Translations under genes and position numbers: made by a program | Virus record (IMG/VR): IMGVR_UViG_2606217106_000011 | Location: 1-9,411 of that record | Reading direction: 5' to 3' (one strand) | Length of the DNA stretch: 9,411 nt | Source of the DNA: a virus | Taxonomy: Duplodnaviria > Heunggongvirae > Uroviricota > Caudoviricetes | The notes under the pieces: model-generated | What the model was told of the DNA's origin: nothing | The model's input: only the letters and a program-made list of their open reading frames with translations | The model's database searches: none | Shown: positions 1,451 through 6,571 of the stretch, one piece after another | How positions within the stretch are numbered: the stretch's first letter is position 1 | Layout of the letters: every line of letters starts with the position of its first letter

Positions 1451-2184
1451 AGCCCACCGGACCTTCCGGTGAAGGTACGGAGAGAGAGCCGGAAGCCCCG
1501 GTCAGTAACCGAACCCTGATGAGTCTGCTGGCGTCCGGCGAAGACCTGGCATCACAGGGCTGGCGCTATTATCACAAACCGGCGAGCGGAGACAATGTTA
1601 ACAAAAACATTGCTGAAGCGGTGGTCAGTGATGCGGGGGCTACGGGAGGTAAGGCCCTGCAACTGAATAAACCGGAAAACCACATCTGGTTTCTGGAGCA
1701 TGATGCAGCCGGACAGGGAGTGGAGTTACTGAAGAAGGGGGGACGTGTGAGCGTACGGTTTAAGTTGCCGGGTTCACTGGTGCCGAATCGGTTTGCCCTG
1801 GGCATTTACTGGCAGTTGTCGTCCCTGCCGGAGGGAGTGACGCTGGCAGAGGAAGGCAACGACATGCTGATGTCCTTCTTCCTGCAGACGGATGCGACGA
1901 ACCTGAACGCGATGTACCACAAGAAGCCGAATGCGAAGCTGGATACGTTCGGGGTCTTTGATAACGGATGGCACACACTGGCTTTTGAGTTTGCCGGAAA
2001 CAACAGCATTCAGGTGACGCCGGTACTGGATGAGAAACGGGGGACGCCGTTCACACTGGTGAAATCTCCGGCATCAGGGGCGGCGGACAAACTGCAACTG
2101 ACAGGCATATCAAAGGCGGCGACATATACGCTGCTGATTGACAGTGTGAAGGTGGAAGTGAACAACGCGGATGCCGCGGCATGA
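1207..2184 (+). pseudogene. C-terminal portion of the same NanS-p-like esterase, in a different frame (frameshifted remnant, or continuation if the shift is a sequencing error)
   Basis: This frame is open from 1207, directly after an in-frame TAG at 1204-1206, to the stop at 2182-2184. The translation (TDENGRNVGTNEPSEDPDVADIGYYGAGG...) looks protein-like. Span 224-2184 is 1961 nt, one nucleotide short of a multiple of three, consistent with a single-base deletion. Confidence 0.65.
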
Positions 2185-2319
2185 TAAAAAAAGCCGCCAG
2201 CGGCAGGAACGGAAGCTGGCGGAGGTAATCCCAATGGAGAATGTAAAGAAAAGATGCTTTCGTATATCGGTTTTTTAAATGAAAGCAGTTCTCATTGTCA
2301 ACCATAACGGTAAGAAACT

Positions 2320-2502
2320 ATGACATTTATTCATCAGGTGATGCTGTACTTCTGTACGGCGGTCTGTGTGCTGTATCTTCTTTCGGGTGGGTACAGGGCA
2401 GTGCGCGATTTCTGGCGCAGGCAGATTGATAAAAGGGCCGCAGAGAAAATCAGTGCCAGTCAGTCAGCCGGAACAAAACCCGAAGAGCCTCTCATTCCGT
2501 AG
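2320..2502 (+). CDS. Hypothetical small membrane protein (60 aa)
   Basis: ORF with ATG start and one hydrophobic segment (VMLYFCTAVCVLYLL) followed by a basic/polar tail. Weak SD. No motif recognised. Confidence 0.3.
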   Translation: MTFIHQVMLYFCTAVCVLYLLSGGYRAVRDFWRRQIDKRAAEKISASQSAGTKPEEPLIP

Positions 2503-2539
2503 CAACTTTCTTAACAACACCTTTCAACGAGAAAATACC

Positions 2540-2809
2540 ATGTCAGAAATAAAATCGCTGGTCACTGCTGAAGCAGTGAAGGAAGTCCTGCGCTCTGAAG
2601 AAGTCAGAAGCGCACTGAAACAGCAACTTCGGCAGAACCTTGAGGCGCGTCTTGATGCAGAAGTGGATGCCATTCTGGATGAACTGCTGGGCGCACCGAC
2701 TGTTCCGGAGCCGGAAGGCATTGCGGATGACAGTGCTGTTTCAGATGGCGTCGGGTCTCAGCCTGATGGTAGCAGTGAGCCTCAGCCTGACGGCGAAATG
2801 ATGATGTAA
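2540..2809 (+). CDS. Hypothetical acidic protein (89 aa)
   Basis: ATG at 2540, starting MSEIKSLVTAEAVKEVLRSEE; predicted helical N-terminal half and a D/E/P/S-rich acidic C-terminus. Weak SD (GAGAAA). The longer ORF-track version from 2366 has no better start signal. Confidence 0.45.
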   Translation: MSEIKSLVTAEAVKEVLRSEEVRSALKQQLRQNLEARLDAEVDAILDELLGAPTVPEPEGIADDSAVSDGVGSQPDGSSEPQPDGEMMM

Positions 2810-2884: not shown

Positions 2885-3100
2885 ATGTACCAGATGGAAA
2901 AAATCACAACAGGTGTGTCATACACCACGTCAGCGGTGGGGACGGGCTACTGGTTCCTGCAGCTGCTGGACAGGGTTTCCCCGTCTCAGTGGGCGGCAAT
3001 AGGCGTACTGGGGAGTCTGCTGTTTGGTCTGCTGACGTACCTGACGAACCTGTATTTCAAAATCAGAGAGGACCGTCGTAAGGCGGCTCGGGGAGAGTAG
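2885..3100 (+). CDS. S: Class II holin, phage-21 S21-type pinholin with dual-start motif
   Basis: 71-aa product with close identity to the S21 pinholin as recalled ([23 protein letters not shown]...[22 protein letters not shown]). Two Met codons (M1, M4) as in the S21 antiholin/holin pair; two TM segments; SD GGGAGA (2873-2878). Confidence 0.9.
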
Positions 3101-3103
3101 ACG

Positions 3104-4096
3104 ATGAATAAAAAATATGAACTGGTTGTAAAAGGGATAAATCATTACCCGGATAAGATAGCTGTTACTGTGGCACTGGAAATTGGTGGGTATCCGCCAC
3201 TGTTGTTGCCAAATGTGGCGATTAGTCTTGACCGTACTGAAGGTGCCACGCTGGAGTTTTACGAAGCTGAGGCGAAAAAGCAGGCGAAGCAGTTTTTCAT
3301 GGATATTGCTGCCGGGTTATGTGAAGGGGATGAACCGTTGCCAGAAAAGCGCCCCATAATTTTAGAGGCGCAGGATGTGTTGATAACCTACAAAGGAAAG
3401 CTACCGGGAAGAATTACTGATGCTCTGAAGATGCCGCCGTCAACACTGCGGTCAGAAAAAGATGATATTGAATCACGCATTGAAAAACTGGAGTGCTGTG
3501 TTACTGAATTGAAAAAAAGCACCCCAACAAAAAATGAGGTGCTTGCAGCAGATGAAATGAAAGAAACTATTCTTGAATTAGCTGCGCGCCTGAACTGCGC
3601 TTCACTGTTGAAAGAGCATTTTCAGCAGCCTGAAAAAAAACGCCGCGATGAGCAGCAGTTTGCGGCGTTTTACGATTATTGCCGGAAAGTGATGAGCAGA
3701 AATCTCGCAGAGTGTTTCAGTATTCATAATGATAATTTCAGTGAGCTGGAATGGGAGTGTAACCGGCCATCCTTTGTTGTATCCGGTGATGGTGGGAAAA
3801 TAACCATCTCAGAAAATGGGAAAGTAACACCTCCATCGCACCAGCACAGTGAGGAGCTCATTGAATTTGCCATTGATTACCTGAAGAACAATAAAAAGCA
3901 GGGGCTGATGAAGCGCGTTGGCCGTTGCATGGGATATCTGCAGGTAGCTGCTGAGATTGAAGCGCTTGCCAGTGGTGCAGACAGGGATACTGCGGTGCGG
4001 GAGGTCCTTCTTCGTGATTTCAATACTCCGCCCTTTAAGAAAGAGCCTGATGGCTGGCTCCAGCCGGGGCTGAATTATCTCAAAGGGCGGATATAA
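3104..4096 (+). CDS. Hypothetical protein (330 aa), AT-rich insertion between holin and endolysin; function unknown
   Basis: Long uninterrupted ORF. ATG 3104 lies 3 nt after the holin stop and uses the SD GGGAGAG (3091-3097) inside the holin 3' end. Visibly lower GC than the flanking lysis genes (by eye). No Walker A, HExxH, HNH, lipobox or signal peptide seen; charged, partly coiled-coil-like middle region. Confidence 0.75.
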   Translation: MNKKYELVVKGINHYPDKIAVTVALEIGGYPPLLLPNVAISLDRTEGATLEFYEAEAKKQAKQFFMDIAAGLCEGDEPLPEKRPIILEAQDVLITYKGKLPGRITDALKMPPSTLRSEKDDIESRIEKLECCVTELKKSTPTKNEVLAADEMKETILELAARLNCASLLKEHFQQPEKKRRDEQQFAAFYDYCRKVMSRNLAECFSIHNDNFSELEWECNRPSFVVSGDGGKITISENGKVTPPSHQHSEELIEFAIDYLKNNKKQGLMKRVGRCMGYLQVAAEIEALASGADRDTAVREVLLRDFNTPPFKKEPDGWLQPGLNYLKGRI

Positions 4097-4102
4097 GTAC
4101 TG

Positions 4103-4417
4103 TTATCTGTTACCTGATAATTGTCTGAACAGGCGATCTTTTTGTGATTTGGCGTAATGATTATCCCATTCGCAATCAAGGTAACTTAATTCTTCATTTA
4201 ACCAGTCATCTATATTGTCTTTCAGGCGAAGGAGCAAGGTTGGTGTTAATGCTCCGGATATAATACTGAGAGTTGCAGTAGTGAGAGCTCCATACGGTTC
4301 AGCCTGAATGGCCTTTACTGCTTCGTGTTCTTGCGGGAGGAGTAAAAGGCATTCCGATTTTACCCGCTCATTTATGGCTTGCAGGTATAAATCATAATTA
4401 TGTTGATGGTTATGCAT
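4103..4417 (-). CDS. Hypothetical protein (104 aa), convergent partner of the 330-aa ORF; function unknown
   Basis: Minus-strand ORF starting at the ATG complementary to 4415-4417, with SD GAGGA 7 nt upstream on that strand. Its stop (4103-4105) lies 6 bp from the stop of the 3104-4096 gene. AT-rich like its neighbour. The longer ORF-track version (to 4669) overlaps the endolysin start and has no SD. Confidence 0.6.
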   Translation of the reverse strand: MHNHQHNYDLYLQAINERVKSECLLLLPQEHEAVKAIQAEPYGALTTATLSIISGALTPTLLLRLKDNIDDWLNEELSYLDCEWDNHYAKSQKDRLFRQLSGNR

Positions 4418-4545
4418 AGTTAATCCTCGACTGGAATTGTCAGATATATTTTCAGCCAGCAGATAAAACGCCAGTGCCCACCACTGGCAGGCTGAAGACT
4501 TAACATATCCAGGGGGCCGGAACCGATAAATCCTGATAAATATCC

Positions 4546-5079
4546 ATGAACGCAAAAATCCGATACGGCCTGTCGGCTGCCGTTCTGGCGCTGATTGGTG
4601 CAGGGGCGTCTGCGCCTGAAATCCTCGACCAGTTTCTTGACGAAAAAGAAGGCAACCACACCACGGCATACCGTGATGGTGCGGGTATCTGGACCATCTG
4701 CCGTGGTGCCATCATGGTGGATGGCAAACCTGTCGTTCCGGGCATGAAGTTGTCGAAGGAAAAATGCGACCAGGTTAACGCCATTGAGCGTGATAAAGCG
4801 CTGGCGTGGGTGGAGAAAAACATCAGAGTGCCGCTGACCGAACCCCAGAAAGCGGGGATCGCGTCATTCTGTCCGTACAACATTGGTCCCGGTAAGTGTT
4901 TCCCGTCGACGTTTTACAGACGAATTAATGCAGGTGATCGCAGGGGAGCATGCGAAGCGATTCGCTGGTGGATTAAGGACGGTGGCAGAGACTGCCGTAT
5001 TCGCTCAAACAACTGTTACGGTCAGGTATCCCGTCGCGACCAGGAGAGTGCGCTGGCGTGCTGGGGAATTGACAGATAA
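4546..5079 (+). CDS. R: SAR endolysin (T4-lysozyme-like muramidase with N-terminal signal-anchor-release domain), R21-like
   Basis: N-terminal Gly/Ala-rich weakly hydrophobic segment (YGLSAAVLALIGAGASAP), then the catalytic E-x8-D-x5-T arrangement in EGNHTTAYRDGAGIWTICRG. Sits in the lysis cassette with pinholin and Rz/Rz1. No recognisable SD directly upstream. Confidence 0.9.
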   Translation: MNAKIRYGLSAAVLALIGAGASAPEILDQFLDEKEGNHTTAYRDGAGIWTICRGAIMVDGKPVVPGMKLSKEKCDQVNAIERDKALAWVEKNIRVPLTEPQKAGIASFCPYNIGPGKCFPSTFYRRINAGDRRGACEAIRWWIKDGGRDCRIRSNNCYGQVSRRDQESALACWGIDR

Positions 5080-5169
5080 GCAGAATATTTTGCTGAAAAA
5101 TGCGGTTTGCTCACACGGACGGATAACACGAAATCCTGCGAACTGACAAAAACTAAGTGAATAAAAGTA

Positions 5170-5210
5170 AAAACCCCGTTTGTTGGCTGCAAGCGGGGTT
5201 TTGTGTTTCT
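5170..5210 (+). terminator. Intrinsic-terminator-like hairpin (possibly bidirectional) between R and the small-peptide/Rz genes
   Basis: Stem CCCCGTTTG (5174-5182) / CAAGCGGGG (5190-5198), 9 bp with one G-U pair and a 7-nt loop, followed by TTTTGTGTTTCT (5199-5210) and preceded by an A-rich tract. Confidence 0.5.
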
Positions 5211-5235
5211 GACCTTGGATAAGGCAAGGGAGAAC

Positions 5236-5418
5236 ATGGAAAAGTATAAACGAATTCTGTTGAGGTTGACTATGAAAAACGGCCTTGAACTGAAAGCGCC
5301 AGTAACTGATGACATCAGCAGAGCGCTGGCTTTTGCTATTAAGTGGGTGGCGGTTGGTATCGCTGTGTCTCCGATACTGTATGGGCTGGCAAAACTGGTC
5401 ATTGCGCTGAAATCGTGA
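5236..5418 (+). CDS. Hypothetical small membrane protein (60 aa)
   Basis: ATG 5236 preceded by SD AGGGAGA. The C-terminal half is a hydrophobic helix (ALAFAIKWVAVGIAVSPILYGLAKLVIAL). Paralogous to the following 28-aa ORF. Confidence 0.4.
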   Translation: MEKYKRILLRLTMKNGLELKAPVTDDISRALAFAIKWVAVGIAVSPILYGLAKLVIALKS

Positions 5419-5429
5419 ACTTTAAAAAG

Positions 5430-5516
5430 ATGAGTGCTGAACTTATTCGGGCAATGGCATTTGCCATTCGTATTGTGGCCATTGCTGTTCTGGTCTGGGC
5501 AATCCGTTGGTGGTGA
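5430..5516 (+). CDS. Hypothetical hydrophobic peptide (28 aa), paralogue of the preceding ORF
   Basis: ATG 5430 to TGA 5514-5516, product [28 protein letters not shown]. Aligns with residues ~38-55 of the 5236-5418 product (RALAFAIKWVAVGIAV vs [16 protein letters not shown]). Its stop is 1 nt before the Rz ATG (5518). Below the ORF-track size cutoff; weak SD. Confidence 0.3.
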
Positions 5517-6380: not shown

Positions 6381-6571
6381 TTGTCCCCTCATGGTCGCTG
6401 GTCCGGTGCGATGGTGGAAGAAACCGGACGATGTGTTACCTCGCAAGCTCTGTTATGTCATGTGTCTGATTTGTGATTTAAGTCGGATAATTGTCGTTGC
6501 CATTAAGCAGAGGATTGATGACCGACAGGGTGGCATTGTTAGAATAAGACGTATTCTTATCTGTGCCGGGA

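Follow-up and report, generated by a model that had tools for sequence, protein, structure and literature searches.

What fills the interval between the holin and endolysin genes of a lambdoid prophage when 1.44 kb separate the two, and is its content a new kind of accessory system? The question is raised by a DNA stretch of 9,411 nucleotides (nt) from IMG/VR record IMGVR_UViG_2606217106_000011, in the following called the window, in which positions 3101-4545 lie between the pinholin gene S and the endolysin gene R and carry two open reading frames (ORFs), one for a protein of 330 amino acids (aa) and one, on the opposite strand, for a protein of 104 aa that we call X104. Gene order and protein families identify the window as the late region of an Escherichia coli lambdoid prophage, in the order SASA/NanS-type esterase, pinholin S, 330-aa ORF, X104, signal-anchor-release (SAR) endolysin R, Rz, TonB_C protein, HNH endonuclease and small terminase subunit. 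A first-pass annotation had regarded the interval as a horizontally acquired foreign cassette. We conclude with high confidence that it is the slot ordinarily taken by ydfR in S21-type lysis cassettes, here filled by a full-length and probably ancestral form of the YdfR/DUF1327 family together with X104. Both are late-region genes that are catalogued but uncharacterised. The features of the interval and its borders are as follows (SD, Shine-Dalgarno sequence):

2885-3100, plus strand: pinholin S, an S21-type class II holin with dual start (M1/M4), Pfam PF04971 Phage_holin_2_1 (E 9e-33), directly 5′ of the 330-aa ORF
3090-3097, plus strand: SD GGGGAGAG of the ydfR-family gene, within the 3′ end of S; the ATG (3104) is 3 nt past the S stop
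3104-4096, plus strand: full-length ydfR-family gene, 330 aa, phrog_1085 (E 5e-172)
4103-4417, minus strand: X104 gene, 104 aa, phrog_1853 (E 2e-42)
4428-4424, minus strand: SD GAGGA of X104, 6 nt ahead of its ATG at 4417
4546-5079, plus strand: SAR endolysin R, Pfam PF00959 (E 3e-24), the next gene 3′ of X104

The coordinates and the convergent arrangement of the two ORFs, with a gap of 6 nt between their stops (4097-4102), agree with the first-pass annotation, as do the SD of the 330-aa gene embedded in the end of the holin gene and the separate SD of X104. The same annotation assumed that R normally comes right after S. In the relatives a ydfR-family gene normally lies between them: the Qin prophage of E. 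coli K-12 has the order essQ-ydfR-rrrQ-rzpQ, and a ydfR-type gene is found at the same place in H-19B, BP-4795, phage 86 and many Shiga toxin (Stx) phages of the Stx1a, Stx2a and Stx2c types. Of 5426 complete E. coli genomes, 2918 match part of the interval, at a median of two places each, and near-identical DNA (99.9%) is present in E. coli B1-56 (L005, NZ_AP040249); a scan of GTDB species representatives yielded 3 loci only. The S stop and the following ATG are 3-4 nt apart in all 46 related loci that were scored. The SD inside S, thought to have been taken over by an incoming gene, is the native ydfR start and the same in every one of these relatives.

The 330-aa protein had been described as having no assignable motif. 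It carries Pfam DUF1327 (PF07041) at aa 1-100 (E 3e-40, 136.6 bits versus a cut-off of 25), and phrog_1085, a family listed as of unknown function, covers its full length. E. coli has homologues of 268-333 aa. A BLASTP segment map against 120 homologues divides the protein into three modules (pLDDT, predicted local distance difference test):

3104-3403, plus strand: N-terminal DUF1327 domain (aa 1-100) of module A (aa 1-~115), with a core of three beta strands and a long helix at aa 5-73
3449-3748, plus strand: module B, a variable helical linker (aa ~116-215) from the segment map; helices predicted with low pLDDT
3770-4093, plus strand: module C, a conserved C-terminal domain (aa ~223-330; ~216-330 in the segment map) with the motifs GRCMGYLQVAAEIEA and NPPFK..W..PG..YLKGRI

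Module B also occurs in forms of 183, 211 and 305 aa and is missing from the 268-aa forms, which consist of A and C (e.g., phage 86 gp05). Module C without A is found in forms of 185 and 213 aa, as in O157 prophages. An exhaustive HMMER search with aa 116-330 as query retrieved module C homologues at 33-47% identity, and their alignment has G273, R274, Q280, P310, K312, W318, P321 and Y325 as invariant residues. The longer of these homologues also carry a divergent N-terminal domain (pattern EG..LE.Y..E....A.........C.GE), and hhalign of the two N-terminal domain sets gave a probability of 89% (E 2e-6). In E. coli, module C is present in 789 of the 5426 genomes.

Each of the three parts of the 330-aa ORF has a ratio of nonsynonymous to synonymous substitution rates (dN/dS) of 0.18-0.47. 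We considered and rejected the possibility that the gene is a pseudogene, since its frame is intact in strain B1-56 and its C-terminal parts are under purifying selection. The NCBI annotation pipeline PGAP labels the intact gene of B1-56 (L005 9004-9339) as a pseudogene ("YdfR family protein, incomplete, missing C-terminus"), and leaves module C unannotated in many genomes, for example in ATCC 25922. Evidently the Pfam and PGAP family models cover the N-terminal third, or the short form, only. At permissive E-values aa 101-330 had no match in NCBIfam, Pfam or PADLOC, where a chance match of 10 bits was the sole result, and profile searches of the PDB with the 330-aa protein and with X104 returned coiled-coil noise only. 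Outside aa 1-73 and 220-262 the AlphaFold2 model is of low quality, and it leaves linker and C domain without an assignable fold. The protein is slightly acidic and soluble, and its gene has the orientation of the late operon.

Salmonella homologues of the long protein, at 26-34% identity, have both end domains in common with it, and hence the A-linker-C architecture, as judged from these alignments, is older than the divergence of these phages between E. coli and Salmonella. The long form looks ancestral. Since both end domains are still shared at about 30% identity, the short YdfRs of 103-114 aa are probably truncations, and they have the appearance of deletions. Alignment of the window with Stx2_EH2201 (L004), a phage with a 114-aa YdfR, delimits the segment that the short form lacks:

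3440-4482, no strand: segment of ~1.04 kb missing from the 114-aa short-YdfR phages, containing aa 113-330, X104 and the left half of a palindrome (see below)

The short-form junction, at about 3440/4482, is close to a heptamer, CTGAAGA, that is repeated near both edges of the segment (3425-3431 and 4492-4498).

The interval is indeed rich in AT, as had been claimed. Its GC content is 45.0% compared to 55.2% for S plus R, and no other window of 1445 nt across the 9.4 kb has a lower value. GC at third codon positions amounts to 0.46 in the 330-aa ORF and 0.35 in X104, versus 0.60-0.69 for R and S; over whole genes, X104 has 40.3%, the lowest value of the interval, and the long ydfR gene 46.2%, versus 55% for S and R. 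This drop of 10 points would fit a foreign two-gene cassette that was recently inserted between S and R, captured the holin SD and brought in a new abortive infection, exclusion or toxin-immunity system. The presence/absence polymorphism of about 1 kb with CTGAAGA near both edges is in line with such an event, as is the lack of a functional annotation for both proteins. However, low GC is a property of the whole family: in all loci examined, Salmonella included, ydfR-like genes have 44-48% and X104 homologues 41-50%. Even the universal N-terminal module has 46%, while module B has 41.7%. This universal domain makes up the 5′ third of the supposed cassette and has an identical start context wherever it occurs, Salmonella phages have the same architecture at about 30% identity, and the leader of R is unchanged in relatives. 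Because low GC extends to the universal N-terminal domain and to the Salmonella homologues, a recent insertion is not indicated, and we consider the cassette explanation very improbable. The interval is "compositionally foreign" solely in an old, moron-like sense: X104 and the long ydfR gene differ in base composition from their neighbours, and so do their counterparts in most relatives. The proposal of a defence, abortive infection or toxin-antitoxin function fared no better. Neither protein matches a model of PADLOC 2.0, Pfam or NCBIfam for such functions, the genes are convergent and thus do not form the co-directional operon of type II toxin-antitoxin systems, and overproduction of the K-12 YdfR is harmless (PMC13232886).

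X104 aligns to the C-terminal 102 positions of the 159-position profile of phrog_1853, a family of unknown function; at permissive E-values in the family searches it has no match in Pfam, NCBIfam or PADLOC, and none in the PDB. A profile search collected 42 clusters of X104 proteins, and all those with a named source stem from E. coli or Salmonella enterica. AlphaFold2 predicts a confident five-helix bundle (pLDDT 88.3). Its dN/dS is 0.09-0.56, and full-length alleles differ by no indels down to 66% identity. Considering that frames and lengths are conserved across relatives and that dN/dS is low, both ORFs are real genes, X104 included. X104 is soluble, with a maximum 19-aa hydropathy of 1.49 versus 1.70 for S and 1.67 for the SAR domain of R. 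A transmembrane or SAR character of aa 45-63 was considered and rejected: homologues are charged there, and the segment falls within predicted helices of the bundle. The features expected of a lysis regulator or effector (transmembrane segment, SAR domain, signal peptide or lipobox) are found in neither X104 nor the 330-aa protein.

The first-pass annotation had also seen in the two ORFs a pair of real, uncharacterised genes, and this view is borne out by their distribution. All 43 IMG/VR loci that carry X104 have it adjoining a module C gene, between that gene and R, with a fixed X104-to-R spacer of about 128 nt. In 42 of them the two genes converge and 6-11 nt separate their stops, or would do so in the absence of a frameshift; the exception is L051, in which a deletion makes X104 and the module C gene overlap. 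In 37 of 42 scorable X104-bearing loci the upstream ORF runs uninterrupted between the ATG next to S and the ...YLKGRI end. The partner can be an A+B+C (330 aa), a 311-aa A...C (L036), an A+C (268 aa) or an A-less form (213 and 185 aa).

A further 13 tail-to-tail loci from six lineages (L055, L059/60, L061/62, L063-65, L066-68, L069/70) are of the Salmonella type. They combine an X104 homologue of 43-52% identity with an A-like/linker/C protein, with stops that overlap by 4 nt or leave a gap of up to ~20 nt. In the loci with visible neighbours, the pair is flanked by Q/HicAB (or an ArtA-like toxin gene) on one side and the holin gene on the other, rather than by S and R. In one Salmonella lineage (L061/L062 2157-3469) it lies just 3′ of a pertussis-toxin-S1-like (ArtA-type) gene, which occupies the same late-region cargo position as stx in Stx phages. 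A decayed Salmonella prophage (L066-L068) with truncated Q and Rz, no holin or lysozyme gene and RelB/ParE nearby has kept the genes for X104 and a 260-aa YdfR-like protein intact, which hints at selection in the host.

The association is one-sided. Among the 5426 E. coli genomes, module C occurs in 789 and is accompanied by X104 in about 95, and X104 without module C was not seen among the 60 E. coli genome matches listed. X104 thus implies C, and C does not imply X104. Such a pattern is expected if X104 depends functionally on the C domain, and also if the two are simply tightly linked; a comparison of the divergence of C and X104 favoured neither. The genome of the E. coli O104:H4 strain C227-11 from the 2011 outbreak (NZ_CP011331 1478627-1479298) has a module C plus X104 pair of the phage 86 type at 85.9% identity.

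One explanation for this one-sided association is that the two proteins are antagonists, the C domain being a harmful late effector and X104 its dedicated inhibitor or modulator, which would act against leaky late expression in the lysogen and be shut off by convergent late transcription. The absence of X104 from places without an adjoining C-domain gene, in about four E. coli and six Salmonella lineages and despite divergence to 41-52% identity, supports such a relation. It is also favoured by the conserved tail-to-tail layout and by the retention of both genes in the decayed prophage after holin and lysozyme were lost. Against it, X104 is missing beside most C-domain genes, the common forms of 185 and 296 aa among them. 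The divergence of module C and of X104 is correlated (r = 0.89 overall, 0.47 within E. coli), but no more strongly than expected from phylogeny, and in one recombinant (L011) the junction falls inside X104. Neither protein has a recognisable toxin or antitoxin fold, and the overproduced short YdfR is non-toxic (PMC13232886), a result that is silent on the C domain. Overall, we regard an antagonist pair as unlikely.

The spacer between X104 and R contains two further conserved elements:

4469-4489, no strand: palindrome CGCCAGTG-N5-CACTGGCA, 53 nt 5′ of the X104 ATG, at the right edge of the variable segment
4490-4545, plus strand: native leader of R, lacking a canonical SD, near-identical in relatives with or without X104 (L003, L004, L007)

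The palindrome occurs once in the window, where 0 occurrences are expected by chance. Its general form, CGCCAGTG-N5/6-CACTGGCG, was found in the E. coli and Salmonella loci checked at 52-54 nt 5′ of the X104 ATG, with a single substitution in one arm in L059, L061 and L063-L065. It is present at 2649-2669 in L003 (PhiR5_1), at 2730-2750 in L007 (Stx1_14744), at 5417-5438 in L057 and at ~2929-2950 in L066. In L003, L007 and L057 it precedes antisense ORFs unrelated to X104: one of 86 aa with a weak DUF1823-like match (L003, 2354-2614, minus strand), one of ~210 aa with no family (L007, ~2044-2680, minus strand) and one of 96 aa with DUF1883 (L057, 5098-5388, minus strand). None of the three has a PADLOC match. 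The palindrome therefore always stands just 5′ of the antisense gene that adjoins the ydfR-family gene, whatever the antisense product, and the site of X104 behaves as a cargo hotspot. The palindrome could be an operator, a 5′-terminal mRNA hairpin or a recombination boundary. The hairpin was examined and found unsupported: folding z-scores of -0.5 to -2.3 are unremarkable, compensatory changes are absent and mismatches are inconsistent between strands. The S-R interval has no Rfam match.

R is preceded by a weak SD, which had been interpreted as the result of an insertion that left the gene without one. The last ~55 nt before R are near-identical in 114-aa-YdfR relatives without an antisense gene; relatives with other antisense genes share the leader stretch back to the palindrome, ~75 nt upstream, and the final ~10 nt are also common to K-12 Qin and an O157 prophage. 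Since this leader is conserved in relatives with or without an antisense gene, the weak SD is R's own.

The hotspot suggests another explanation, in which X104 is an independent moron, one of several alternative cargos in the antisense slot 3′ of ydfR. It would be expressed from the prophage for the benefit of the host, for example in exclusion or defence, with no functional tie to YdfR, and the adjacency of the two genes would reflect linkage. The unrelated genes behind the same palindrome are what one expects in this case, and the particularly low GC of X104, its own SD, its opposite orientation and its patchy occurrence (~95 of 5426 genomes) are all consistent with it. A free cargo, however, should sometimes adjoin a short ydfR or one ending in module B, and in the loci examined X104 never does. 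X104 also has no PADLOC match and no detected promoter or terminator of its own. We think it improbable that X104 is such an independent cargo.

What might a full-length YdfR and X104 in the ydfR slot then do? In the searchable literature, functional data on the YdfR family are limited to the work of 2026 on its interaction with RNase E (PMC13232886); one other paper names DUF1327 in passing. In that study the first 72 residues of the K-12 YdfR bound RNase E 1-597 in a two-hybrid assay, and the full K-12 protein co-purified with RNase E 1-598 and brought down DNase-resistant nucleic acid (PMC13232886). Its overproduction caused no growth defect and altered few transcripts (PMC13232886). The 330-aa protein is 42% identical to the K-12 YdfR over aa 1-74.

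Based on this homology we tentatively propose the following, as something possible rather than probable. The 330-aa protein would be translated late from the Q-dependent transcript via the SD inside the end of S, and would for this reason be made together with the lysis proteins. It has no transmembrane segment (maximum 19-aa hydropathy 1.14, versus 1.70 for S and 1.67 for the SAR domain of R), no signal sequence and no lipobox, so that a role in membrane or wall lysis is not expected. Its N-terminal domain may, by analogy with the K-12 protein, engage the catalytic half of RNase E and/or RNA, through which the protein would tune how RNA is degraded or processed in the late stage of infection. 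X104 would be transcribed in the opposite direction from the spacer beside R, with a leader that starts at or near the conserved palindrome. With stops 6 nt apart and no terminator between them, transcription from either side has to continue antisense into the opposite gene, and X104 would be silenced once the strong late transcription under Q sets in. Overlapping transcripts and late silencing would together make X104 most likely a product of the prophage phase and the long YdfR a product of the lytic phase. A conserved terminator downstream of X104 was likewise not found; a terminator-like hairpin on the minus strand at 3517-3544, inside module B and ~560 nt past the X104 stop, is absent from phage 86 and the Salmonella loci and probably due to chance.

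Several points weigh against this account. Binding to RNase E is established for the 103-aa K-12 YdfR only, few transcripts changed on its overproduction, and according to the authors a contaminant as carrier of the RNA is not excludable (PMC13232886). Scanning the 128-nt spacer (4418-4545) for the consensus revealed no sigma-70 promoter for X104, with weak hexamers only, just upstream of the palindrome. The palindrome itself has no compensatory changes, and its single arm mismatches hit different strands in different loci. Within E. coli the divergence of X104 correlates with that of C no better than the divergence of R does with C, the 6-11 nt between X104 and C allow linkage alone to explain their association, the L011 recombination junction lies within X104, and the 789 genomes with module C far outnumber the ~95 with both. 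For slot identity and mechanism taken together as the best explanation as a whole, we have moderate confidence. A more far-reaching version would be that long YdfR and X104 together act as a two-part phase switch, not recognised before, in lambdoid prophages that include Stx and ArtAB toxin phages. In such a switch the C domain of a late RNase E/RNA-directed effector would be controlled by a small prophage-expressed partner, and convergent overlapping transcription and the 5′ palindrome would set the choice between the two. We consider this quite unlikely.

The genes are already catalogued as Pfam DUF1327, NCBI "YdfR family" and PHROGs 1085 and 1853. What appears to be new is the two-domain ancestral architecture, the conserved convergent partner and the palindrome. 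By its alignments the YdfR family is really one of two-domain proteins, part of it with the convergent partner and the palindrome. These points improve the description of a known uncharacterised kind and do not amount to a new kind of system. Many strains are concerned: over half of the complete E. coli genomes have prophages whose lysis cassettes contain a ydfR-family gene, Stx-converting phages included, and the long forms are at present annotated as pseudogenes or not at all. If the RNase E lead is true, temperate phages would possess a late-phase modulator of RNA decay, which may affect late transcripts, among them stx in Stx phages.

Outside the S-R interval, three more regions of the window deserve mention. 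The NanS-type SASA esterase gene at 224-2184 is split into two overlapping frames (ORFs of 408 and 318 aa), and the homology to intact relatives of 617-648 aa changes frame at ~1204-1207, just past a run of seven A residues (1181-1187); it is either a frameshift pseudogene or the product of a homopolymer sequencing error. In the R-Rz spacer (5080-5433) there is a strong terminator-like hairpin on the plus strand (5170-5202, with 14 pairs and a T run), together with an ORF of 71 aa (5203-5418) that has a hydrophobic stretch at its C-terminal end. Relatives carry ant or other genes there, making it a second variable slot. Located 3′ of Rz, where lambda has bor, a 113-aa ORF (6563-6904) combines a lipobox-like N-terminus (LVMGC) with a TonB_C domain; a TonB_C ORF after Rz is also found in the unrelated locus L056.

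How does this locus compare with known systems? The closest named relative, YdfR of K-12 Qin (P76160, "YdfR family protein"), likewise lies between a class II holin gene (essQ) and an endolysin gene (rrrQ) and shares the N-terminal 74 residues mentioned above. It differs in having 103 aa, no linker or C domain and no antisense partner, and in overlapping rrrQ by 4 nt. Stx2 phage 86 has the same order of S, long ydfR, convergent 104-aa gene and R, encoding gp05 (YP_794052, 268 aa) and gp06 (YP_794053, 104 aa), with 83% identity in module C and 77% in X104. Its gp05 lacks module B and consists of N-terminal and C domain only; the two proteins are annotated as "YdfR family protein" and hypothetical and have never been studied. 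The Salmonella lambdoid prophages (L055, L059-L070) resemble the window in an N-terminal DUF1327-like plus C domain, in an X104 homologue of convergent orientation and in a palindrome that stands 52-54 nt 5′ of the ATG. Their proteins measure 192-297 aa and 105-111 aa, and they differ by the position of the pair upstream of S, where neighbours are visible, and by their low identity, with 26-34% in the long protein and 43-52% in X104. Lambdoid morons in the sense of Hendrix and Juhala, such as bor and lom, are AT-rich accessory genes in the late region, and bor is oriented against the late operon. X104 resembles them in base composition and location and, like bor, runs against the late operon; unlike in these morons, a promoter/terminator pair was not found for X104, and the ydfR gene has the direction of the late operon and directly adjoins S. 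Phage factors that bind or modify RNase E and retune RNA decay during infection are T4 Srd, T7 gp0.7 and phiKZ Dip. We know of no sequence relationship of the long YdfR to any of them. T4 Srd targets the N-terminal half of RNase E, the part bound by the K-12 YdfR. These three are early or middle genes of virulent phages, whereas the long YdfR is a late gene of temperate phages.

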